A stretch of 64,000 nt of DNA. Origin: an uncultured Collinsella sp. Lineage in GTDB: Bacteria; Actinomycetota; Coriobacteriia; Coriobacteriales; Coriobacteriaceae. Made by a program: the position numbers and the translations under genes. The DNA is taken from positions 2,403 through 66,402 of the forward strand of contig CAJLCM010000001.1 in the NCBI GenBank assembly GCA_905205145.1, given 5' to 3'. Positions 1,218-50,290 of the stretch are shown piece after piece; the first letter of the stretch is position 1, and each line of letters opens with the position of its first letter. Under the pieces are notes generated by a model. It searched no databases. It worked only from the letters and a program-made list of their open reading frames with translations, and had not been told where the DNA came from.

Positions 1218-1235
1218 TCTGTCCTCACCGACCAC

Positions 1236-1406
1236 GGAGCGCAGAGCGGGGAAACCTTTCCCTCTCGCTCACGGCTTCGCAGGGTCGCGCGAGGCAAAGG
1301 TTTCCCCGCCCTGCGTTCCGGCGTTGAGTCGCCGCATGCTTGTTACAGAAAAGCTGATAATAAGTTTGTGTGCCGCCCCTTTGGGGCGGCACTTTTTGTG
1401 GGGGGT
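1236..1406. repeat. Intergenic structured repeat, family 1 copy b.
   Basis: It has the same architecture as 322-505. The long stem has a different sequence (gcggggaaaccttt / aaaggtttccccgc) but is again self-complementary. The loop cgctcacggct.cgcagggtcgcg and the 3' linker plus terminator hairpin are conserved. Confidence 0.6.
1368..1398 (+). terminator. Terminator-like hairpin (gtgccgcccctttggggcggcac followed by tttttgtg).
   Basis: A GC stem followed by a T-run. It lies inside copy b of family 1. Confidence 0.5.
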
Positions 1407-9300: not shown

Positions 9301-10002
9301 ACCGAGGAGGCCACGGCGCGCCTGACCGCGCTTTCCGAGTTCCAGGACCTGGGCAGCGGCATGCGCATCGCCATGCGCGACCTGGAGATTCGCGGTGCCG
9401 GTTCGCTCATGGGTGCCGAGCAGCACGGTAACCTGTCGAGCGTGGGCTTTGACCTGTTTACGCAGATGCTGGGCCAGGCCGTGGCCGAGGCGCGCGGCGA
9501 CGACGATGCCGGCGTGGAGGCGGCGAGCGTGGGCATCAACCTGCCGGCCGACTACTTCTTGTCCGAGGAGTACATGCCGGCGGTGGACCAGCGCGTGCTC
9601 GTGTACCGCAAGCTCGCGGCGGCCGAGGACCTGGAGAGTATCGACGAGGTGCAGGAGGAGACCGAGGCCGCGCACGGTGAGCTTCCGTTGGCGGGGCTCA
9701 ACCTGTTCAACCGCGCTCGCATCCGTATTCGCGGCGAGCGCCTGGGGCTCGAGAGCGTCACGCTCAGCGGCGGACGCATCACGTTTTTGGGCGTCGACGT
9801 GCCCAAGAAGGTGGCCTATGAGCTTAAGACTCGCTATGGCGCGGTGAACTTCCCCAAGAGCCGCAAGCTCTCGGTGCCCTACAAGGCGGGCGCCGGTGCG
9901 GGCAGCGGCCTGGGCCGCGGCCTCGATGCCAACGACGGCACCGGCCCGGTGGCGGCCGCGCTCATGCTGCTGCAGCAATTGGGTGCTAGCGACGACGACT
10001 AA
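6370..10002 (+). CDS. mfd: Transcription-repair coupling factor Mfd.
   Basis: ~1210 aa. Contains the RNAP-interacting domain, helicase motif I GDVGFGKTEVALRAAF, DEEQRFGV and the TRG/C-terminal domain. ATG 6370 follows GGAGGAA. Confidence 0.9.
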   Translation: MLIHRIAAQLYTAEALQTVEAGLDAGEDVTLAVSQSGRTLMAAAQFARRPRPTVYIVSGEDAADRAARSLAAYVGLAHVCRFPERKDYPWREQAPDDAVVAQRCEALGRIVRGDNCIMVASARALLRCVPPVESRYWESTTFAVGEEIPFDEVPQRLVGMGYTNAGTADAPGLFRVHGDTVEVFPAQEKAPVRIEFFGDEIDRIRRMVSSTGQTIGNEDSIEIFPCRELALTDDAVHNMHVALYRASQDDSKLAALLEMVDARIVTPELDRFLPVMYGQTVSPLSHVSGNALVVLSEPRSLFDDCLRAYEDIEARAGEAGIDRLDGLYVRAQQLDFGAQQRLNYVSLIRAGGAVTAELKIEQPAIAGSDNRFMTRIQEVVGKRYACVFAIPDRGARESMELTFGDEGITFEESLTAAPENAGAIGDRVRVAAADSADRAARQEAHASIRERKADALNARPLEAGAAQAAAGAAVPTISRGRVTFVDAALPQGVVVPDANLAVFSIADLNARMDANRARSRRKVDITQITFPFKPGDYVVHATHGIALFSEIARQEVGGKERDYFLLEYADGDKLYVPLEQVDRITRYVGPDGDKPRLTRLNTADWTRATNKARKNAKKLAFDLVDLYTRRSSITGIACPPDTPEQIEMEESFPYDETRDQLEAIADIKADMEAPKPMDRLLCGDVGFGKTEVALRAAFKCVDSGRQVMVLCPTTILAQQHYETFFERFAPFGLEVEVLSRFRTPAQQKRALKAFAEGTIDVLIGTHRLLSADVNPKNLGMVIIDEEQRFGVQHKEQLKNLREQIDVLTLSATPIPRTMQMATSGVRDMSLITTPPTGRRPVIVHVGEYDPDVVSAAIRLEVGRGGQVYYVSNRVKTIDDAVARVHEAAPEARVGVAHGKMSPREVEDVMIEFATKKIDVLIATTIVESGIDNATANTLIIEDSQRLGLAQLYQLKGRVGRSATQAYAYFMFPGELPLTEEATARLTALSEFQDLGSGMRIAMRDLEIRGAGSLMGAEQHGNLSSVGFDLFTQMLGQAVAEARGDDDAGVEAASVGINLPADYFLSEEYMPAVDQRVLVYRKLAAAEDLESIDEVQEETEAAHGELPLAGLNLFNRARIRIRGERLGLESVTLSGGRITFLGVDVPKKVAYELKTRYGAVNFPKSRKLSVPYKAGAGAGSGLGRGLDANDGTGPVAAALMLLQQLGASDDD

Positions 10003-10045
10003 CGGGTCGACGCTGCAAACGCCCCATTTGGGCAATCTGGTTCCA
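10003..10045. repeat. Fragment of repeat family 3 (cgacgctgcaaacgcccc...gcaatctgg core only).
   Basis: Matches the 5' core of the copies at 15010-15045 and 23535-23565. Confidence 0.4.
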
Positions 10046-12070: not shown

Positions 12071-12661
12071 ATGACCGAGATGTCCGAGCCGACGATTCGT
12101 CTGGCGACGCCCGATGATGCGCCGGCGTTGCTTGCCATCTATGAGCCGTATGTGCGCCAGACGGCGATAACCTGCGAATACGCGGTGCCGAGCGTTGAGG
12201 AGTTCGCCGGGCGTATTGAGCGTACGCTCAAGCGCTATCCGTATCTGGTGATGGAGTTGGACGGGCGTCCGGTAGGCTATGCCTATGTGAGTCCGCTTAA
12301 CAGCCGCGAGGCCTACGACTGGTCGGTCGAGACGTCGATCTACCTGGCACGCGATGTGCGCCATGGCGGGCTGGGTCGCAAGCTGCACGACGCGCTCAAG
12401 CAATGCCTGGTCGCGATGGGCATCACCAACATGTGCGCCCTCATCGCCGTGCCGCACGACAAGGACGACGAGTACCTGACGCACAATAGCCAGGATTTCC
12501 ATGCCCATATGGGATATCGCCTGGTGGGCGCCTTCGACCGCTGCGCCCAAAAGTTCGGCCGCTGGTACGACATGTGCTGGATGGAGCTGGTCCTGGCTGA
12601 GCGCACACCCAACCAACCCAAACCAATCTGGTTTCCCGACCTCCCCAAACCCACCATTTAG
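12071..12661 (+). CDS. GNAT family N-acetyltransferase (phosphinothricin-acetyltransferase-like).
   Basis: Acetyl-CoA binding motif RHGGLGRKLHDAL. PAT/YncA-like length. ATG 12071 follows GAGGGAGAAGG. Confidence 0.7.
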   Translation: MTEMSEPTIRLATPDDAPALLAIYEPYVRQTAITCEYAVPSVEEFAGRIERTLKRYPYLVMELDGRPVGYAYVSPLNSREAYDWSVETSIYLARDVRHGGLGRKLHDALKQCLVAMGITNMCALIAVPHDKDDEYLTHNSQDFHAHMGYRLVGAFDRCAQKFGRWYDMCWMELVLAERTPNQPKPIWFPDLPKPTI

Positions 12662-12672
12662 GGACAGGTTTA

Positions 12673-12910
12673 TTTTGGCCGCTTTGTAGCGTCAATCCAC
12701 CGCGAGAAGTACGGATTCACGCGTCTTTTGATGCGGATGGGCTTAATTTGGCTTCGATTTGGGTCCGTTTGGCTTCGATTCGAACTAAGTGAGTAGACTT
12801 TTTGGCGCAGGTCGAGCACAAGGCGTATCTGCCTTAGTAAAACCGCAGGTCACAGAGGTGACAGTTTTTGGTGTGCTCGACAGGTCACGAAAAGTCTACT
12901 CACTTAGATT
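12673..12910. repeat. Intergenic repeat family 2, copy a (~236 bp). Has an internal tandem tttggcttcgatt x2 and a terminal inverted repeat ctaagtgagtagacttttt ... aaaagtctactcacttag.
   Basis: ~85% identical to 21131-21366 over its full length. Confidence 0.6.
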
Positions 12911-13985: not shown

Positions 13986-14978
13986 ATGACTACTCAGGAA
14001 CAGGTTAAGGATGTCGTCTCCCAGGTTTTGGCTGACAAGGCAGACAAGGGCGGCATCAAGCGCGTCGTGTGGATTGGCGCTGGCGGATCCAACGGCGGCA
14101 ACTATCCTGCCCAGTACTTTATGGAGCACGAGGCCACGCAGGTCGTGAGCTCCAGCTACACCAGCAACGAGTTCGTGCACGCCACCCCGGCCTACGTCAA
14201 TGAGAACACCCTGGCCGTGGTCGTGTCCATGCGCGGCACCAAGGAGACCATCGTCGCCGCCCAGGTCGCCAAGGACCATGGCGCCAGCACTATCGCCATC
14301 TATGTCGACGAGTCCGGCCTTACCGAGGTCTGCGACTACAAGATCCAGTACGATAGCCTGGCCGTCGATGAGTCCTGCATGGGCCGCACCAACTCCGCCG
14401 TCGTGACCATGATCGCCATGGAGCTTACGCAGCAGACCGAGGGCTATGCCGAGTACGAGACCGCTATGGCCGCGTTCGACTTGGTCGACCCCATCTATCG
14501 CAAGGCCGTCGAGTACACCCGTCCGCTCGCCGCCAAGTGGGCCGAGCAGAACGCCGACAAGCCCTGCATCAACGTCATGGCCCAGGGCCCGCTCTTTGGT
14601 GCCGCCTACGTCTTTAGCATCTGCAACGTGCAGGAGATGCTGCAGATCGACTCCTGCACCATCAACACCTGCGACTTCTTCCATGGCCCCTTCGAGATCC
14701 TGGACAAGCGCACCTCGCTGTTCCAGCTCATCAGCGTCGGCCGCAGCCGCTGCAACGACGAGCGCGGCATCCGCTTCGTCAACCAGTACGGTGGCGAGCG
14801 CGTCTATCAGCTCGACGCCAAGGAGCTCGGCCTCAACGACATCAAGGACAGCGTGAGCGAGTACTTCAACCACCTGATCTTTGCCCCGATCCTCAACAAC
14901 GTGTACATGCGCGCACTTTCTGCCGTCACCCACAAGGACTACATGACGCGCCGCTACATGTGGAAGCTGGACTACTAG
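13986..14978 (+). CDS. SIS-domain sugar-phosphate isomerase/deglycase (FrlB/AgaS-like), paralog 1.
   Basis: Two SIS-like halves. The C-terminal ..RRYMWKLDY is shared with paralogs at 19376 and 26795. Confidence 0.7.
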   Translation: MTTQEQVKDVVSQVLADKADKGGIKRVVWIGAGGSNGGNYPAQYFMEHEATQVVSSSYTSNEFVHATPAYVNENTLAVVVSMRGTKETIVAAQVAKDHGASTIAIYVDESGLTEVCDYKIQYDSLAVDESCMGRTNSAVVTMIAMELTQQTEGYAEYETAMAAFDLVDPIYRKAVEYTRPLAAKWAEQNADKPCINVMAQGPLFGAAYVFSICNVQEMLQIDSCTINTCDFFHGPFEILDKRTSLFQLISVGRSRCNDERGIRFVNQYGGERVYQLDAKELGLNDIKDSVSEYFNHLIFAPILNNVYMRALSAVTHKDYMTRRYMWKLDY

Positions 14979-14980
14979 GA

Positions 14981-15193
14981 GTTACGCGGTTTTACCAAAC
15001 CGCGCAACTGGTTGACGCTGCAAGCCCGCCAGAGCGGCAATCTGCCTTTCAACTTCGGCGGCATGACCAGAAGGTCAATGCCGCCTTGTTTCAAGGCACC
15101 TTGCTCGCTCTGGCGGGCTTTCGCTGTCGTTACCAAAACATTGGCGTTGCCGCGATTGCCAAGTAGTCATTCAAGAACGTCCCCAATGACTAT
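14981..15193. repeat. Intergenic structured repeat family 3, copy A. Contains a gttacgcggttttaccaaaccgcg hairpin, a long-range 13-bp stem and an internal hairpin.
   Basis: Shares a conserved backbone with 23503-23814 and 46741-46930. The stem gcccgccagagcg/cgctctggcgggc is perfect. Confidence 0.6.
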
Positions 15194-20358: not shown

Positions 20359-20460
20359 TCGCAAGTAGGTAGACCTTACTGGTTGATTGAGAGGGGATGG
20401 GGTTTGCGCCCTGTCCCCTTTTTGCTTTGGGGAGGACGTGCCCGTTGCGCTGTAAAACCC

Positions 20461-20502
20461 CAGATAAAACCTACCAAAATAAACCTGTCCCTTTTTGGCA
20501 GG
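20461..20502 (+). promoter_or_regulatory. Conserved ~48-nt upstream motif, copy 1 (cagataaaacctaccaaaataaacctgtccctttttggcagg). Ends 4 nt before the RBS of the HAD gene.
   Basis: Near-identical sequence at 22590-22640 (+) and 30896-30945 (-). Contains a 10-bp inverted repeat CCTRCCAAAA/TTTTGGYAGG. Confidence 0.45.
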
Positions 20503-20513
20503 TGGGAGGAGAT

Positions 20514-21147
20514 GCGTATGATCAAGGCAGTGCTGTTTGATATGGATGGCGTGCTGGTCGATACCGAGTGGTTCTACAACCGTCGTCGCGTGGCGTTTAT
20601 GGAAGAGAAGGGGTTTCACTTTGACGAGATCCCCGATCTTTCGGGATCTAACGAGCCGGCCATTTGGGAGGCACTGGTGCCCGACGATGTTGAACTGCGC
20701 GAGCGCCTGCGCGTTGAGTACAAGCAGGTCTATAGCCCGGACCATCCCGTTCCGTATGCCGAGCTGCTCAACGAGCAGACGGAGCCGGTGATGCGTGAGC
20801 TGCACGAGCGCGGCGTGAAGTGCGCCATCGCGAGCTCGTCCTATCGCGAGCTTATTGACGAGCTGGTGGAGATTGCCGGCATTGCCGATGTGCTGGATTA
20901 CACCATCAGCGGTCACGAGTGCAGCGCGTTTAAGCCCGACCCCGAGATCTACCTGCGTGCCATGGAGGCGCTGGGTGTGGAGCCTACCGAGTGCCTGGTT
21001 ATCGAGGATTCGCCTTTGGGCATTGAGGCTGGCAAGCGCTCCGGCGCCCGAGTCCTGGCGCTGCGTCCGCACGAGGGTGTCAACCTGGATCAATCGGGAG
21101 CCGATGCCGTTATCGACACGCTTACCGACATTTTGGCCGCTTTGTAG
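20514..21147 (+). CDS. HAD-superfamily hydrolase (beta-phosphoglucomutase-like sugar phosphatase).
   Basis: HAD motif I LFDMDGVLVDTE plus downstream motifs II-IV. The RBS is GGGAGGAG. The last 5 codons plus the stop lie inside the family 2 repeat. Confidence 0.75.
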
Positions 21148-21366
21148 TGTCAATCCGCCGCGAGAAGCACGGGTTTAAACGTTTTTTGCGGTGGACTGGC
21201 TCAATTTGGTTTCGATTATGATCCGTTTGGCTTCGATTCGGGCTAAGTGAGTAGACTTTTTGGCGTAGGCTGAGCACAATGCATATCTCCCTTTGTAAAA
21301 CCGCAGGTCACAGGGGTGGCGGTTTTGGGTGTGCACTGCAGGTCGCGTAAAGTCTACTCACTTGTA
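21131..21366. repeat. Intergenic repeat family 2, copy b.
   Basis: Aligns end to end with 12673-12910. It begins inside the HAD gene at ttttggccgctttgtag. Confidence 0.6.
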
Positions 21367-22510: not shown

Positions 22511-22589
22511 GGTACCGGCATTTTGCCGGCCTGGCGCAATCCTGTCCGCTTGAGCCTCCCGAAAGCCTCGTTGCTTTTGTGAGGCTCTC

Positions 22590-22640
22590 GTTTGCCCAGA
22601 TAAAGCCTATCAAAATGAAGCTGTCGCTTTTTGGTAGGGA
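22590..22640 (+). promoter_or_regulatory. Conserved ~48-nt upstream motif, copy 2.
   Basis: gtttgcccagataaagcctatcaaaatgaagctgtcgctttttggtaggg. Lies 90 nt upstream of the GntR gene at 22731. Confidence 0.4.
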
Positions 22641-22730: not shown

Positions 22731-23450
22731 ATGCCTGCACCCAAAAATGCACCGCTTTACCAGCAGATTTACGACGAAATTAAGGACGCGATCGAGAAAG
22801 GTGTTTATGCACCCAAGGAGCGTATTCCGTCCGAGCTTGAGCTAGCCGAGCAGTACGACGTGAGCCGCATTACGGTGCGCCGCGCCGTCGAGGAGCTGTG
22901 CTCCGATGGCTACCTGGTTAAGCAGCAGGGCCGTGGCACCTTTGTCTCCACGCCGCACATCAACCGCCAGTTCCACGCTTCGACGCTGCAGACGTTTACC
23001 GCGCTGTGTGCCGATAATGACATGAAGGCGGGCGCGCATGTGGTCGATCGCCAGATTGTGCCGGCACGTCAAAACGAGATGGAGTTCTTTGGCCTGCAGA
23101 AGGACGCGCTGCTGCTGCACATCAAGCGCGTGCGTACGGCCGACGGCGAGCCCATTTTTGAGGAGAACATCTTTGTGCCGTTTGACGCCTACCGTGAGCT
23201 GTTGACGGCCGATCTTGAGGACAAGTCGATTTTTGCCGAGGTCGAGCGTGTTGGCGGAACGCCGATTGTCTCGGTTGGTTACCGCACGGTCGAGGCCGTT
23301 CGTGCCAATACCGAGCAGGCGGCCGAGTTGGGCATTGCTCCGCACGATCCACTGCTCAACCTGCGTGCCGGCTTTATCGGCCCCAATGGCGAGCCGGTCC
23401 TGATGGGTAAGCAGTACTACGTGGGATCGCGCTACGTTATGGTCATGTAG
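22731..23450 (+). CDS. GntR/HutC-family transcriptional regulator, paralog 2.
   Basis: HTH (..PSELELAEQYDVSRITVRRAVEELCSDGYLVKQQGRGTFV..) plus a UTRA domain. Confidence 0.8.
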   Translation: MPAPKNAPLYQQIYDEIKDAIEKGVYAPKERIPSELELAEQYDVSRITVRRAVEELCSDGYLVKQQGRGTFVSTPHINRQFHASTLQTFTALCADNDMKAGAHVVDRQIVPARQNEMEFFGLQKDALLLHIKRVRTADGEPIFEENIFVPFDAYRELLTADLEDKSIFAEVERVGGTPIVSVGYRTVEAVRANTEQAAELGIAPHDPLLNLRAGFIGPNGEPVLMGKQYYVGSRYVMVM

Positions 23451-23502
23451 GGTTGGTTCCGCCGTTCTTACGAACGGCGGACCGATCGACGCTGCGCCTT
23501 TG

Positions 23503-23814
23503 GTTACGCGGTTTTACCAAACCGCGTAACGGCTCGACGCTGCAAACGCCCCTAAGCGGCAATCTGACGTTCAATCGTCGGTCGCGTACCGAAGTACGCT
23601 TCCCTCCTCTTTCACGTCACCTTGCTCGCTTAGGGGCGTTTTCGCTGACTTATGCTCAACCAGCGACGTTTCCGTGCTTGTCAAGAGATAAAACATCGAC
23701 GTTGCCGGGCCGGCACTTGGGGACGTTCCTTTTGTGCCGGCACCTGGGGACACTCCTTAGTCGTTGGGGACGTTCTTAAACGACTGGTCATTCAAGAACG
23801 TCCCCGATGACTAC
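23503..23814. repeat. Intergenic structured repeat family 3, copy B (the longest).
   Basis: Has the perfect palindrome gttacgcggttttaccaaaccgcgtaac, the long-range stem aacgcccctaagcg/cgcttaggggcgtt and the extra 3' hairpin ggggacgttctt...aagaacgtcccc. A terminator-like hairpin (ccgccgttcttacgaacggcgg) precedes it at 23457-23480. Confidence 0.6.
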
Positions 23815-30876: not shown

Positions 30877-30895
30877 TCCAGCCTCCTCTAACAAA

Positions 30896-30945
30896 CCTGC
30901 CAAAAAGGGACAGGTTTATTTTGGCAGGTTTTATCTGGGCAAACG
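30896..30945 (-). promoter_or_regulatory. Conserved ~48-nt upstream motif, copy 3. Lies immediately 5' of the cyclo-ligase RBS and has a perfect 10-bp inverted repeat.
   Basis: The minus-strand read is cgtttgcccagataaaacctgccaaaataaacctgtccctttttggcagg. Confidence 0.45.
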
Positions 30946-31022
30946 TGATATGGGCAGTAAAGCCACCGCAAATATGCCTGTGAACTGCGCCCTTTGTGGT
31001 TGTTTGGGCCTATGCGTTAATG

Positions 31023-36592: not shown

Positions 36593-37162
36593 ATGCAGTC
36601 TCCTTTGACGCCCCAGCGGGGGCGAATCGAGTCGAATCCTCGAGAGTATACCCATATGGGGCCGCGGCTCTGCGGCGAACTGAAGACGATGCTGGCGGAT
36701 TGGGCATAGGTCCCGCGTGCCCGCCGCACGAGCGTGGAAAATTGGACACTCGCCAAACGAGAGTGGATATTTGGACGGAATTTGCCGCAAAAGCCCCAAA
36801 AACCGTCCAAATATCCACTCTCGATATCCGACCGTCCGAAAATCCTCGCTCGTCCATCACTCGCGTATCTCTCGTCTCTCATTCGTCTCTAATATGAGAG
36901 ATGACAGGAAGATGAGAGAAAAATATGAGAGATAACTGAGCAGCAAAGAGACAGGCAATCATGGTATTGTCTCAATACCGATTGTTCTACCAGCAAAAAT
37001 ATGTATAAATGAAGCAAATGGTAGACATTCCATCTCTATCTATCTCTTATCTCTAAGCCGAGAGATAGAGAGATAGATGAGAGATAATTACGAGAGATAA
37101 CTGAGAGACGAGGGAAATCTATCCGCGGCATTCTTCGCAGGACCGAGCGAAAGGACGTGAAG

Positions 37163-45409: not shown

Positions 45410-46741
45410 ATGAAGTACTTTGGCACCGACGGCTTTCGCGGTGAGGCCAACGCTGGGCTGACGGTAGAGCACGCTTATAAGATTGGCCGTTTTGTGGGCT
45501 GGTATTACGGCGCCAACCGCAGTGCTAAGGCGCGCGTTATCGTGGGCAAGGACACACGTCGCTCGAGTTATATGTTCGAGGCGGCGCTGGTGAGCGGTCT
45601 GGTCGCGAGCGGTGCGGACGCCTATATGCTGCACGTGATCCCCACGCCGGGCGTAGCGCATCAGACCGTGGAAGGCTGCTTCGATTGCGGCATCATGATC
45701 AGCGCGAGCCACAACCCGTTTTGCGATAACGGCATTAAGCTCGTCAATAGCGACGGTTTTAAGATGGACGAGGACGTACTGGAGCTCATCGAGGACTACA
45801 TCGATGGCAAGAGCGAAGTTCCGCTGGCCACGGGCAACCACATCGGTGCCACGGTGGACTACATGCAGGGCCGCAACCGCTACATTGCTTCGCTCATTGC
45901 AAGTGCGAACTTTTCGCTGCAGGGCGTCAAGATCGGTATCGACTGCGCCAACGGCTCGGCTTCCTCGGTGGCCAAGCCGGTGTTCGACGCGCTCGGTGCC
46001 GACGTGCGCGTGATCAACGCCGCGCCCGATGGCTTTAACATCAACGTCGACTGCGGCTCCACGCATATGGAGCGCCTGCAGCGCCATGTGGTGGAGCAGG
46101 GCCTGGATGTGGGCTTTGCCTATGACGGCGATGCCGATCGCTGCTTGGCCGTGGACGAGCGCGGTCGCGTGGTAGACGGCGACCAGATCCTGTACGTGTG
46201 CGGCGTGTATCTGAACAAGCACGGGCGACTCTCGGGCGGTACCGTGGTGCCGACGATTGCCAGCAACTTTGGCCTGGTCAAGTCGCTGGAGCTTGCCGGT
46301 CTGAGCGCCGTGACCAGCGGCGTGGGCGACCGTCACGTGTATGCCAAGATGCGCGAGGGCGGCTACAGCCTGGGTGGCGAGCAGACGGGCCATACGATCT
46401 TTGGCGATATCGAGCGCACGGGCGACGGCATTATGACCTCGCTGCGCGTGATGGAAGTGATTCGTGCCGAGCGCGAGACGCTCTCGCAGCTCACGGCTCC
46501 GTGCAAGCTGCTGCCGCAGGCGCAGGTGGCCGTGCACGTGGCGGACAAGGACGCCGCGCTCGAGAACATGGGCGTGCAGAACGCCATCGCCGAGGCCGAG
46601 GCCGCGCTGGCAGGCGAGGGCCGCGTACTGGTGCGCAAGAGCGGAACCGAGTCGGTTATCCGCGTGCTGGCCGAGGCGCCCGACCAAGCATCCGCCGATG
46701 CCGCCATGAAGCGCATCGCAAGTGCTCTGGAGGCTCTTTAG
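45410..46741 (+). CDS. glmM: Phosphoglucosamine mutase.
   Basis: MKYFGTDGFRGEAN N-terminus, the active-site Ser loop GIMISASHNPFCDNGIKL, the metal-binding DGDADR motif and a sugar-binding GEQTGH-like loop. Confidence 0.85.
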   Translation: MKYFGTDGFRGEANAGLTVEHAYKIGRFVGWYYGANRSAKARVIVGKDTRRSSYMFEAALVSGLVASGADAYMLHVIPTPGVAHQTVEGCFDCGIMISASHNPFCDNGIKLVNSDGFKMDEDVLELIEDYIDGKSEVPLATGNHIGATVDYMQGRNRYIASLIASANFSLQGVKIGIDCANGSASSVAKPVFDALGADVRVINAAPDGFNINVDCGSTHMERLQRHVVEQGLDVGFAYDGDADRCLAVDERGRVVDGDQILYVCGVYLNKHGRLSGGTVVPTIASNFGLVKSLELAGLSAVTSGVGDRHVYAKMREGGYSLGGEQTGHTIFGDIERTGDGIMTSLRVMEVIRAERETLSQLTAPCKLLPQAQVAVHVADKDAALENMGVQNAIAEAEAALAGEGRVLVRKSGTESVIRVLAEAPDQASADAAMKRIASALEAL

Positions 46742-46930
46742 TTACGCGTTTTTACCAAACTGCGTAACTGCTCGACGCTACAAACGGCCCCAAGCGGCAG
46801 CCTGATGTTCAATTTCAAGGGCGCGACCAGAAGGTCAGCGCCCTTTCATTTCACGTCACCTTGCTCGCTTAGGGTCGTTTTCGCTGACGTTGCCAAGACA
46901 TTAGCGTCAACGAACTAGTCATTGGGTACC
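46741..46930. repeat. Intergenic structured repeat family 3, copy C. Begins at the G of the glmM stop codon.
   Basis: gttacgcgtttttaccaaactgcgtaac hairpin, the long-range stem aacggccccaagcg/cgcttagggtcgtt, and the internal hairpin agggcgc-gaccagaaggtca-gcgccct. Confidence 0.55.
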
Positions 46931-47007
46931 TAGTTATTGGGTGAAAAAAGGGGACGCTGCGGATTGGTTCCGCGGCGTCCCCTTTGCGTTGGCGTGTTGG
47001 TTATGCC

Positions 47008-49094: not shown

Positions 49095-50171
49095 ATGAGT
49101 CTGATTGATGATCTGGTCAAACTCGAGGAAGAGGCCAAGGAGCTCGTCACTAGCGCCGACGACGCCGCAAAGCTCGAGGCCGCGCGCGTTGAGCTGCTCG
49201 GCCGCAAGGGCCGCATCACCGGCCTGATGCGCATGATGGGCAAGCTCGCCCCCGAGGACCGTCCCGTGATGGGCAAGCGCGCCAACGAGATGCGCCAGCT
49301 GATCGAGGGCATGCTCGACGAGCGCACCACCGAGATGAAGGCCGCCGCCCTCAAGCATGCACTCGAGCACGAGGCCGTCGACATCACGCTGCCGGGCATC
49401 CGTCCGCAGATCGGTCACCAGCACCTGATCAAGCAGATCATCGAGGAGGCCGAGGATATCTTCTGCGGTATCGGCTACACCGTCGAGTCCGGCCCCATGG
49501 TCGATACCTCCTACTACAACTTCACCGCGCTCAACGCGCCCATGGATCACCCGAGCCGCTCGGCTCGCGACACGTTCTATGTGGTCGACAACAACCCCGG
49601 CAGCGTCGCGCATCCCGAGGCCCACGCTCACGGCGAGTCCGACGTACTGCTGCGCACCCAGACCTCGGGCGTGCAGATCCACACCATGGAGTCGCAGAAG
49701 CCGCCCATCTACATGATCTGCCCGGGCACCGTCTACCGTCCCGACACGGCCGACGCCTGCCACCTGCCGCAGTTCAACCAGATTGAGGGCCTGGTCGTCG
49801 ACGAGGGCATCACCTTTGGCGATCTTAAGGGCACGCTCGACTACTTTGTTAAGTGCATGTTTGGCGAGGACCGCAAGACGCGCTACCGCCCGCATTTCTT
49901 CCCCTTCACCGAGCCTTCTTGCGAGGTGGACGTGAGCTGCCACGTCTGCGGCGGCAAGGGCTGCAACTTCTGCAAGCACAGCGGCTGGATCGAGATCCTG
50001 GGCTGCGGCATGGTCGACCCCAACGTCCTGATCAACTGCGGCATCGACCCCGAGAAGTACACCGGCTTCGCCTTTGGTATTGGCGCCGAGCGCGTCGCGG
50101 CACTGCGCTACGACCTGCCCGACCTTAGAACGCTCATGACGGGCGATATGCGCTTCTTGAACCAATTTTAG
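49095..50171 (+). CDS. pheS: Phenylalanine--tRNA ligase alpha subunit.
   Basis: Class II aaRS motifs, ..FFPFTEPSCEVDV.. ATG 49095 follows GAAAGGGAAG. Confidence 0.9.
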   Translation: MSLIDDLVKLEEEAKELVTSADDAAKLEAARVELLGRKGRITGLMRMMGKLAPEDRPVMGKRANEMRQLIEGMLDERTTEMKAAALKHALEHEAVDITLPGIRPQIGHQHLIKQIIEEAEDIFCGIGYTVESGPMVDTSYYNFTALNAPMDHPSRSARDTFYVVDNNPGSVAHPEAHAHGESDVLLRTQTSGVQIHTMESQKPPIYMICPGTVYRPDTADACHLPQFNQIEGLVVDEGITFGDLKGTLDYFVKCMFGEDRKTRYRPHFFPFTEPSCEVDVSCHVCGGKGCNFCKHSGWIEILGCGMVDPNVLINCGIDPEKYTGFAFGIGAERVAALRYDLPDLRTLMTGDMRFLNQF

Positions 50172-50179
50172 GCTTGCCC

Positions 50180-50290
50180 AGGCACCCCATCTTGGCGTTC
50201 AAACCGTCGCTCGCGTACCTTTAGTACGCGTCGCTCCTCTTTCACGCCAACCTGGGGCACCTGGACAACCCTAAGGCGAACGTCTTCATT
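50180..50290. repeat. Partial copy of repeat family 3 (central hairpin block).
   Basis: gttcaaaccgtcgctcgcgtacctttagtacgcgtcgctcctctttcacgcca aligns with 23570-23625 of copy B. Confidence 0.4.

Follow-up and report, generated by a model that had tools for sequence, protein, structure and literature searches.

A family of structured intergenic repeats, in which stem pairing is maintained by many matched double changes, has been found in a 64,000-nt stretch of DNA from an uncultured Collinsella sp. (contig CAJLCM010000001.1; the whole stretch is referred to here as the window, and all coordinates are window positions). The window contains three full copies (A, B and C), one solitary 5' hairpin module, one deletion remnant and one diverged member, all on the + strand, and more than 100 distinct copies have been gathered from Collinsella genomes and gut metagenomes. 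The family is best explained as a set of Collinsella-specific, non-coding, modular, palindromic interspersed repeats of the same kind as REP/BIME, ERIC and Correia elements, carried in the 3' untranslated regions (UTRs) of genes. On this explanation the element depends on its hairpins for its propagation or recombination, copies already in place drift, and effects on the transcript are side effects that may be locally used. We give both statements a probability of about 0.6. A full-text literature search found no description of Collinsella intergenic repeats, and such repeats appear to be undescribed.

Maintenance of the secondary structure

A full copy spans approximately 190 nt and is arranged in a constant order: the H1 hairpin (28 nt), a 5-nt linker, a junction motif, the L hairpin, TCGCTG and a tail. 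H1, of the general form GTTACGCGGTTT-TACC-AAACCGCGTAAC, is a perfect hairpin with a 12-bp stem, and in each full copy it is followed by the motif CGACGCTGC. L is an interrupted hairpin of about 100 nt with conserved pyrimidine internal loops, and the tail that follows TCGCTG (about 30-40 nt) is one of two alternative modules. Three conserved blocks that had been noted as common to the copies each occur three times in the window, compared with 0.00-0.06 occurrences expected by chance.

The cores of the element (147-148 nt) fold with z-scores of -10.0, -9.9 and -7.1 relative to dinucleotide shuffles. An exact-pattern scan with one genome per species gave at least 120 loci. RNAalifold, applied to 102 distinct copies, predicted 42 pairs, and in 22 of them both sides have changed. 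A covariance model was used to recover further copies. In a set of 55 distinct sequences chosen for diversity, both-side changes were observed in 29 of the 42 pairs and 95.8% of the cells were paired, compared with 33-38% when the partners were slid by 1-3 columns; none of 500 shuffles matched the observed values on any measure. Copies recovered by the covariance model include outer stems that are wholly different yet self-complementary, such as GAAGCCATCTGGTG/CACCAGCTGGCTTC and GCGGGCCGCATTTGG/CACAAATGCGACCCGC. H1 covaries as well (CGCGG/CCGCG, CGGCG/CGCCG, GTTGC/GCAAC, GCTAC/GTAGC) and also occurs in a bulged-T variant (GGTTCCGCCG/CGGCGGACC).

The preliminary description of the window had proposed such covariation from its own copies, and the stem differences have proved to remain compensatory across many more copies. 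Some details required correction. The long-range stem, described as perfect in all full copies, is so in A and B, whereas that of C (AACGGCCCCAAGCG / CGCTTAGGGTCGTT) includes one G.T and one C.A. The GACCAGAAGGTC apical hairpin is shared by A and C only, and B carries GTACCGAAGTAC. In contrast to the stems, several unpaired or mismatched positions are near-invariant, namely GACGCTGC, GCAA-TC-TG opposite CA-CC-TTGC, TTCAA, TTTCA, the NRAA apical loop and TCGCTG.

A long-lived functional RNA is expected to tolerate G.U mismatches and to purge A.C mismatches. Among single mismatches in the stems, G.U and A.C were counted at 48 to 35 in one alignment and 34 to 54 in the other, and the corresponding mismatch columns at 23 to 18 or 16 to 17. 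Moreover, the antisense strand of the three window copies folds at least as stably as the sense strand (-101 vs -88, -83 vs -74 and -68.5 vs -65 kcal/mol), and on that strand the conserved pyrimidine loops turn into purine (GA-type) loops. The lack of wobble bias together with the equal or better antisense folding argues against simple selection on the + strand RNA. The simplest reading is that pairing would be enforced at a step that sees the folded single strand, during either propagation or recombination, and that resident copies would then gain transitions neutrally.

Position and orientation behind stop codons

The second distinctive property of the family is its location. In 88 of 101 copies (~87%), an open reading frame (ORF) on the same strand, with a coding-type G+C content at third codon positions (GC3), has its end at -5 to +2 nt relative to the first G of H1, and the commonest junction is a TAG that shares its G with GTTAC. 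The elements adjoin 97 distinct gene tails belonging to more than 25 different genes. The stop codons of these tails are TAG in 69 cases, TAA in 28 and TGA in none, compared with 295 TAG, 257 TAA and 27 TGA among 579 distinct high-GC3 ORFs of the background (loci L001-L201 and the window), i.e. the TAG share is 71% at elements and 51% in the background. Even in this background TGA accounts for only ~5% of stops, despite a genome of ~60% G+C. In 400 kb of C. aerofaciens annotated independently by PGAP, all four copies abut the ends of annotated coding sequences (CDSs), with the junctions TAG-G-GTTAC, TAG-GG-GTTAC, TAG-TTAC and TAA-CCAAT-TGACGCTGC.

Full copies had initially been placed within 0-50 nt of a stop codon. 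This proximity holds and is far tighter family-wide. H1 is separated from the stop by 2 nt in A and shares the G of TAG in C; for the full copy B the distance is 52 nt, the intervening space being taken up by a solitary hairpin module that begins 4 nt past the stop. Exceptions to the anchoring are copies behind another partial copy and copies at leader-like positions; at one exceptional locus the element follows a terminator, 150 nt past the stop. In loci L058 and L092, a mini-ORF of 7 codons (MSRYQTY, then stop) that has its own ribosome-binding site ends exactly at H1, an arrangement that resembles a leader peptide. In these two loci, as in the orthologous L011 and L008, the element is located behind a divergent promoter region with no long gene upstream.

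Opposite-strand copies within single loci indicate that orientation tracks the gene rather than the replication strand. Thus, one 8-kb locus (L097) contains two copies in opposite orientations, each behind the stop codon of its own gene, and L036 and L071 carry a second copy or fragment on the opposite strand. The downstream gene is co-directional at ~70% of sites and convergent at ~25%.

Canonical terminators are found downstream of several copies, and L itself fails the U-tract test, which places the element in the 3' UTR and not at the terminator itself. L ends in UUU(U)CGCUG, i.e. with a U-tract of 3-4 nt, and a scan for a G+C-rich stem followed by a U-tract of at least 5 U in 8 was negative for copies A and C and, in B, picked up no more than a chance-level sub-stem of 5 bp; a canonical Rho-independent terminator was thus rejected. 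A coding or read-through element was rejected as well: copy lengths of 152 and 153 nt both occur and break the frame, and the median open length past the stop is 29, 24 and 16 codons in frames 0, +1 and +2, without frame preference. The oriented, near-universal abutment on the stop codon is poorly accounted for by the preferred explanation, by host selection and by an HUH-type mechanism alike; it is the most striking property of the family and is worth experiment.

Turnover, distribution and the copies of the window

The comparison of strains (80 metagenome loci, in which the EamA protein is 96-98% identical to that of the window) revealed that orthologous sites may be empty, full, truncated, tandem or swapped. 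Among 22 alleles of the mfd-PAP2 spacer, 11 lack the element, 3 are full and 8 are remnants. Here, element-free spacers of 72-157 nt contain a hairpin, simple or composite, that is not related to the family, filled spacers of 215-219 nt contain a complete L without H1, and the window allele is a 56-nt remnant. In the SIS-EamA spacer, the element is absent from ~23 of 52 alleles and present in ~29, with at least four junctions (TAG-TTAC, TAG-GA-GTTAC, TAG-GGGATATTG-GTTCC and TAG-TTCC). The gntR-recQ spacer contains one to three tandem modules composed of H1, CGACGCTGC and GCCTTTG. Its L may be A-type or B-type at the same site, some alleles are recombinants with a break in the apical loop, and at least six end exactly after GGCAATCTG, a breakpoint identical to that of the mfd remnant. 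The pheS-pheT spacer is 63 nt long in one allele (the related genome L105, without the hairpin found at 50174-50268 in the window) and 163 nt in another. At a further site, one genome retains TAG-CCGACGCTGC alone and two others carry the long hairpin. Each module exists as discrete variants, which are shuffled among copies, and one L variant may be found at different loci when strains are compared. The family is thus dispensable and mosaic, with exchange between sites, and through it strains come to differ in the 3' UTRs of housekeeping genes such as mfd, glmM, gntR, pheS, queA and proB.

Among the matches listed (at least 120 loci), practically all belong to Collinsella isolates or gut metagenome-assembled genomes. 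Viral contigs yielded one match and phages none, and the sole 'plasmid' match, the 0.9-Mb record NZ_OY725717.1 ('plasmid 6' of C. aerofaciens TSDC17.2-1.1), is evidently a mislabelled chromosome segment, since recA, ftsK, rho, dnaE and genes for ribosomal proteins lie on it; carriage by phages or plasmids was rejected on these grounds. The covariance model found four copies in 400 kb of this record. The density is roughly ten copies per Mb and patchy, the window with its three full copies in 64 kb being a dense patch. The family also breaks metagenome assemblies, and many contigs (L121-L200) stop 130-250 nt upstream of the EamA gene, in the repeat-filled spacer. In Rfam 15, a scan of the whole window at the gathering threshold returned tRNA only, and permissive small-region scans of copies A and B returned unrelated hairpin families at chance level (best E 0.008, 25 bits compared with a gathering threshold of 69).

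All five loci reported earlier for the window are present on the + strand, and the genes that precede them (mfd, a SIS-domain gene, gntR, glmM and pheS) are housekeeping genes unrelated to one another. The covariance model assigns 148-174 bits to the three full copies, 33 bits to the pheS-pheT hairpin (50174-50268) and 24 bits to the solitary hairpin module (23453-23499). Both loci first reported as fragments are related to the family, with altered extents: the one given as 10003-10045 is a family member reduced by deletion to 10003-10039, a site at which other strains carry a full L, and the one given as 50180-50290 is a diverged L-type hairpin. The features of the window are listed in the table.

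Table. Members of the repeat family in the window and their parts
Feature	Position	Strand	Remarks
Deletion remnant: CGGG-TCGACGCTGC and 5' arm of L up to GGCAATCTG	10003-10039	+	Directly past mfd TAA (10000-10002)
Copy A, full	14981-15162	+	
Copy A, H1: GTTACGCGGTTT-TACC-AAACCGCGCAAC	14981-15008	+	2 nt past TAG (14976-14978) of SIS-domain gene
Copy A, junction motif GACGCTGC	15014-15021	+	Conserved in nearly all copies
Copy A, L and TCGCTG	15022-15126	+	L 15022-15120, outer stem AAGCCCGCCAGAGCG / CGCTCTGGCGGGCTT, apical GACC-AGAA-GGTC; TCGCTG 15121-15126
Copy A, tail module 1, consensus TCGTTGCCAAAACATCGGCGTTGCC..	15127-15162	+	Common to many copies at unrelated loci
Solitary hairpin module: GGTTCCGCCGTTC-TTAC-GAACGGCGGACC, then CGACGCTGC	23455-23495	+	Bulged-T variant of H1; follows gntR TAG (23448-23450); joined to copy B by GCCTTTG (23496-23502)
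Copy B, full	23503-23690	+	
Copy B, H1	23503-23530	+	Perfect 12-bp stem
Copy B, GACGCTGC, L and TCGCTG	23536-23647	+	GACGCTGC 23536-23543; L 23544-23641, outer stem AAACGCCCCTAAGCG / CGCTTAGGGGCGTTT, apical GTAC-CGAA-GTAC; TCGCTG 23642-23647
Copy B, tail module 2, ACTTATGCTCAACC..	23648-23690	+	Alternative tail, common to many copies
Copy C, full	46741-46915	+	
Copy C, H1	46741-46768	+	First G is the G of glmM stop TAG (46739-46741)
Copy C, GACGCTAC, L and TCGCTG	46774-46886	+	L 46782-46880; TCGCTG 46881-46886
Copy C, tail module 1	46887-46915	+	Separate canonical bidirectional terminator downstream, near 46945-46990, serving convergent M32 peptidase gene
Diverged L-type hairpin, pheS-pheT spacer	50174-50268	+	2 nt past pheS TAG (50169-50171); shares inner TTCAA..GTAC-loop-GTAC..CTCTTTCAC; outer stem different yet self-complementary; without H1 and end motifs

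The right-hand limits originally set for the full copies (15193, 23814 and 46930) took in adjoining modules of other repeat families, including GTAG-tagged REP-like palindromes at 15163-15192 and 23758-23814 and a GGCACTTGGGGACGTTCC module at 23709-23757. The REP-like palindromes (29-30 nt, (G)TAGTCRTTGGGGACGTTCTTAAAYGACTA) form a separate family with very numerous occurrences in L001-L200, either single or paired as inverted doublets that make a larger hairpin, usually just past the tail of the element; the GTAG tag is present on the neighbouring TAGTCRTTGGGGACG.. palindromes, which belong to a different family from the H1 element. The repeat module GGCACTTGGGGACGTTCCTTTTNTGCCGGCANNTGGGGACACTCCT of 23709-23757, found at many loci, is often located between the tail and the REP-like palindromes. 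In the gntR-recQ spacer of one metagenome contig, an IS110-family insertion (PF01548 + PF02371; L165:12783-14330) lies inside the module GGCACTTGGGGACGTTCCTTTT/CTGCCGGCA. The identical left junction recurs at a different locus, in the tail of L201, which suggests that the IS110 element targets that module sequence-specifically.

Other repeats of the window belong elsewhere. Hairpins at 321-420 and 1235-1320 (- strand; CGGAGCGCAGGGCGGG...CCCGCCCTGCGCTCCG, arms of 34-41 nt that are 88-95% complementary) share flanks at 405-508 and 1305-1408 and match the covariance model weakly (26 bits), but they constitute an unrelated family and were rejected as members. A dispersed family, CCCAGATAAAACCTACCAAAATAAACCTGTCCC.., occurs in both orientations at 12641-12905, 20459-20511, 21130-21363, 22586-22638 and 30895-30948 and includes a 234-nt pair with 85% identity. 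The intergenic segments 36728-36853 and 36892-37105 contain an inverted repeat with 57-nt arms and short GAGAGAT-rich direct repeats.

Possible origins and comparison with known systems

In the proposed mechanism, the folded single strand would be recognised by a recombinase or transposase, leading to propagation or retention of the element, and resident copies would drift neutrally after insertion. Ectopic recombination or gene conversion may then spread the diversity, with the conserved junctions CGACGCTGC, GCAATCTG, CACCTTGC and TCGCTG serving as homology. Being part of the transcript of the gene before it, the element would probably also have a cis effect on this mRNA, perhaps as a barrier to 3' exonucleases or as a target of a double-strand RNase. 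H1 abutting the stop codon could moreover hinder the ribosome during termination; E. coli REPs located within 15 nt of a stop codon are reported to stall ribosomes (PMC5082802, summarising Liang et al. 2015).

Several points weigh against this explanation. Selfish insertion followed by purifying selection does not obviously predict that ~87% of copies start, in a single orientation, no more than 5 nt from a stop codon. The asymmetric internal loops that stay constant while the stems vary imply selection at the sequence level, which could equally mean a host function, and all RNA-level effects of the element are ones that we infer. The low and patchy density (4 per 400 kb in one isolate genome compared with 3 per 64 kb in the window) is modest for an active spreader. 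The ends of the element do not form terminal inverted repeats: in a local alignment of TAG, H1 and core with TCGCTG and tail 1, the left end and the reverse-complemented right end score 11.0, compared with 10.9 +/- 2.2 for shuffles (p about 0.46). A suspected inverted similarity between H1 and tail 1 was rejected by this shuffling, and inverted symmetry is confined to the inside of H1 and L. No partner transposase or recombinase was found in ~2.4 Mb of Collinsella DNA; the transposases present belong to the IS21, IS30, IS1249, IS256, IS3 and IS110 families, together with one unclassified 'transposase' CDS, the ends of which were not specifically compared with the element. A regular-expression scan of 250 kb of the annotated C. 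aerofaciens record and of the window detected no H1-type hairpin outside element copies.

The element-free alleles found by comparing strains likewise provided no clean empty site or target-site duplication at mfd-PAP2, SIS-EamA or pheS-pheT, where a simple insertion does not account for all the differences between filled and empty alleles. When the upstream gene ends of the listed loci were compared with one another by BLAST, a single empty-site candidate emerged, which bears a diverged opposite-strand copy. A TA or TAG target duplication, in which the first G regenerates the TAG stop, would fit both the orientation and the TAG excess, and TAG or TAA is indeed often found 26-39 nt past TCGCTG, after the tail. 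However, this triplet is mostly part of the next REP-like module, and since no clean empty site is available either, the duplication was not confirmed.

Of the alternatives, selection by the host deserves serious consideration, although it is unlikely: the repeats would be cis-acting 3'-UTR RNA elements that control the upstream gene and are kept because they are useful. H1 would slow termination or trigger ribosome rescue and mRNA decay, and L would be an RNase III site, an exonuclease barrier or an atypical terminator. Such a role is consistent with the strict co-orientation with the upstream gene and the abutment on its stop codon, with unpaired loops that are constant while stems covary, with the leader-like mini-ORFs ending at H1 in L058 and L092, and with the stalling reported for stop-proximal REPs (PMC5082802). 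Nevertheless, the element is dispensable, being absent from about 23 of the 52 SIS-EamA alleles and half of the mfd-PAP2 alleles (11/22), and further alleles are truncated remnants unable to form L. The host genes are unrelated housekeeping genes, G.U is not favoured over A.C and the antisense strand folds at least equally, and L is no canonical terminator, its U-tract being only 3-4 nt long and true terminators following some copies. Movement as a single-strand-DNA hairpin by an HUH/Y1 enzyme, as for PATEs of the IS200/IS605 type or REPs with RAYT, is doubtful. The hairpins and flanking motifs would then be recognition and cleavage signals, and insertion into exposed single-stranded DNA would be strand-specific. 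This would agree with stems that keep their structure while their sequence varies, the bulged-T variant of H1, motifs at fixed distances from the hairpin foot, the tandem units of H1, CGACGCTGC and GCCTTTG, recurrent breakpoints at GCAATCTG and in the apical loop, a mismatch spectrum symmetric between strands, and the GTAG-tagged REP-like palindromes of the same spacers. On the other hand, orientation follows the gene and not one replication strand, the spacing of TAG and H1 (0-4 nt) is unlike a fixed GTAG tag, and no IS200/IS605, Y1 or RAYT gene is named in 400 kb of annotated C. aerofaciens sequence, a fraction of the genome.

The preliminary description had considered a small RNA or a structure-dependent mobile element, and the latter survives as a structure-dependent repeat that is mobile or recombining, whereas a discrete RNA gene gains no support. 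Independently transcribed trans-acting small RNAs, or small RNAs derived from 3' UTRs with targets elsewhere, are very improbable. Strong structure and covariation would suit them, as would a 3'-UTR position compatible with release by processing; however, the gap from the stop codon to H1 is too short for a promoter, no conserved single-stranded seed exists, as the variable parts are all self-paired, the wobble bias and any Rfam match are lacking, antisense folding is at least as good, and presence varies between strains. Integron-like attC sites, in-frame translated elements of the kind of Rickettsia palindromic elements, and stop read-through have next to no probability. The location directly behind ORFs and the GTTAC..GTAAC ends of H1 recall attC core sites, and copy B is contained within a 108-codon open frame. 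Yet the GTT/AAC order is reversed (5'-GTTACGC...GCGTAAC-3' in H1 vs 5'-RYYYAAC ... GTTRRRY-3' in attC), the hosts are dispersed core genes (mfd, glmM, pheS, queA, proB) without cassette arrays or an integrase nearby, and translation is contradicted by the frame-breaking 152/153-nt lengths and by a frame 0 that is not favoured past the stop.

A further proposal concerns the anchoring alone, which could be mechanistic instead of a survivor effect. Either insertion would be strand-specific where translation ends, or the element would be a dedicated termination or ribosome-rescue module behind chosen genes; the odds of this are decidedly low. In the insertion version, structure-dependent mobile DNA could enter the non-template strand exposed when the ribosome uncouples from RNA polymerase. 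If either version is true, 'stop-codon-targeted structured repeats' would form a distinct class, informative about site choice by repeats and about the influence of structure near stop codons on termination. The genus Collinsella, which is common in the human gut, has been linked to metabolic and inflammatory disease. Its repeats, with their more than 100 natural variants and plentiful covariation, offer an unusually clean system for asking how pairing is kept up without the wobble signature of an RNA and why placement at the stop codon is exact.

When compared with known systems, the family fails the defining tests of miniature inverted-repeat transposable elements (MITEs; ends), tagged REPs (tag), attC sites, terminators, PATEs (strand bias) and MIRUs (ORF). 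Presence/absence polymorphism at orthologous sites (mfd-PAP2, SIS-EamA, pheS-pheT) is MITE-like, but the MITE-like character first ascribed to the repeats is not borne out: the ends are not mutual inverted repeats, and neither a clean target-site duplication nor, in the ~2.4 Mb covered, an autonomous partner was found. Unlike that of PATEs, the orientation is not uniform with respect to the replication strand, as seen from the opposite-strand copies of L097, L036 and L071. The intergenic MIRUs of mycobacteria, reportedly described by Supply et al. in 1997 as oriented like their flanking genes and touching the upstream stop codon, are similar as gene-oriented actinobacterial repeats located at an upstream stop. 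MIRUs are, however, tandem units of 46-101 bp with small ORFs that overlap neighbouring stop and start codons, whereas the Collinsella repeat is a palindromic hairpin with no conserved ORF and no direct tandem arrays of whole units.

ERIC (IRU) and Neisseria Correia elements, imperfect palindromes of 100-160 bp, resemble the family in size, in having one long interrupted hairpin, and in being intergenic and co-transcribed. They alter mRNA processing and stability through RNase E or RNase III. In contrast to these elements, which insert in either orientation without stop-codon anchoring, the Collinsella family has no sequence or covariance-model similarity to any Rfam family, and its ends are unrelated and no clean duplication was found, whereas Correia elements are bounded by terminal inverted repeats of 26 bp and a duplicated TA. 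The Collinsella-1 RNA motif is a structured non-coding RNA of C. aerofaciens and the human gut (RF01700; Weinberg et al. 2010; PMC2864571). It is a different element, and neither copy A nor copy B matched RF01700 even at E <= 10.

The REP/BIME elements of Enterobacteria and Pseudomonas differ from the Collinsella family in several respects. The Collinsella unit is much larger (~190 nt) and includes a second hairpin of ~100 nt; H1 bears no fixed GTAG or CGTC tag, the TAG before it usually being the stop codon, 0-4 nt from the stem, and TAA-GTTAC junctions occurring too. Copies are single, gene-oriented and, in ~87% of cases, stop-abutting, whereas REPs occur in alternating inverted pairs. A 2013 survey of tagged REPs does not include Collinsella or Actinobacteria. 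The likeness is nonetheless extensive. Both are extragenic, co-transcribed with the upstream gene and located at the 3' ends of genes or between cistrons, and a stop-proximal subset of REPs has been reported to affect translation and mRNA decay (PMC5082802, PMC2817692, PMC3733652). H1, at 28 nt with a 12-bp stem and found behind more than 25 genes across Collinsella, is a REP-sized palindrome, and its stems form discrete variants with matched changes. As in BIMEs, the palindromes are combined in mosaics with other motifs: the family has two alternative tails and tandem H1 modules, and its copies regularly precede REP-like palindromes, GGCACTTGGGGACGTTCC modules and GAGCGTGGATAATCTCCC hairpins.

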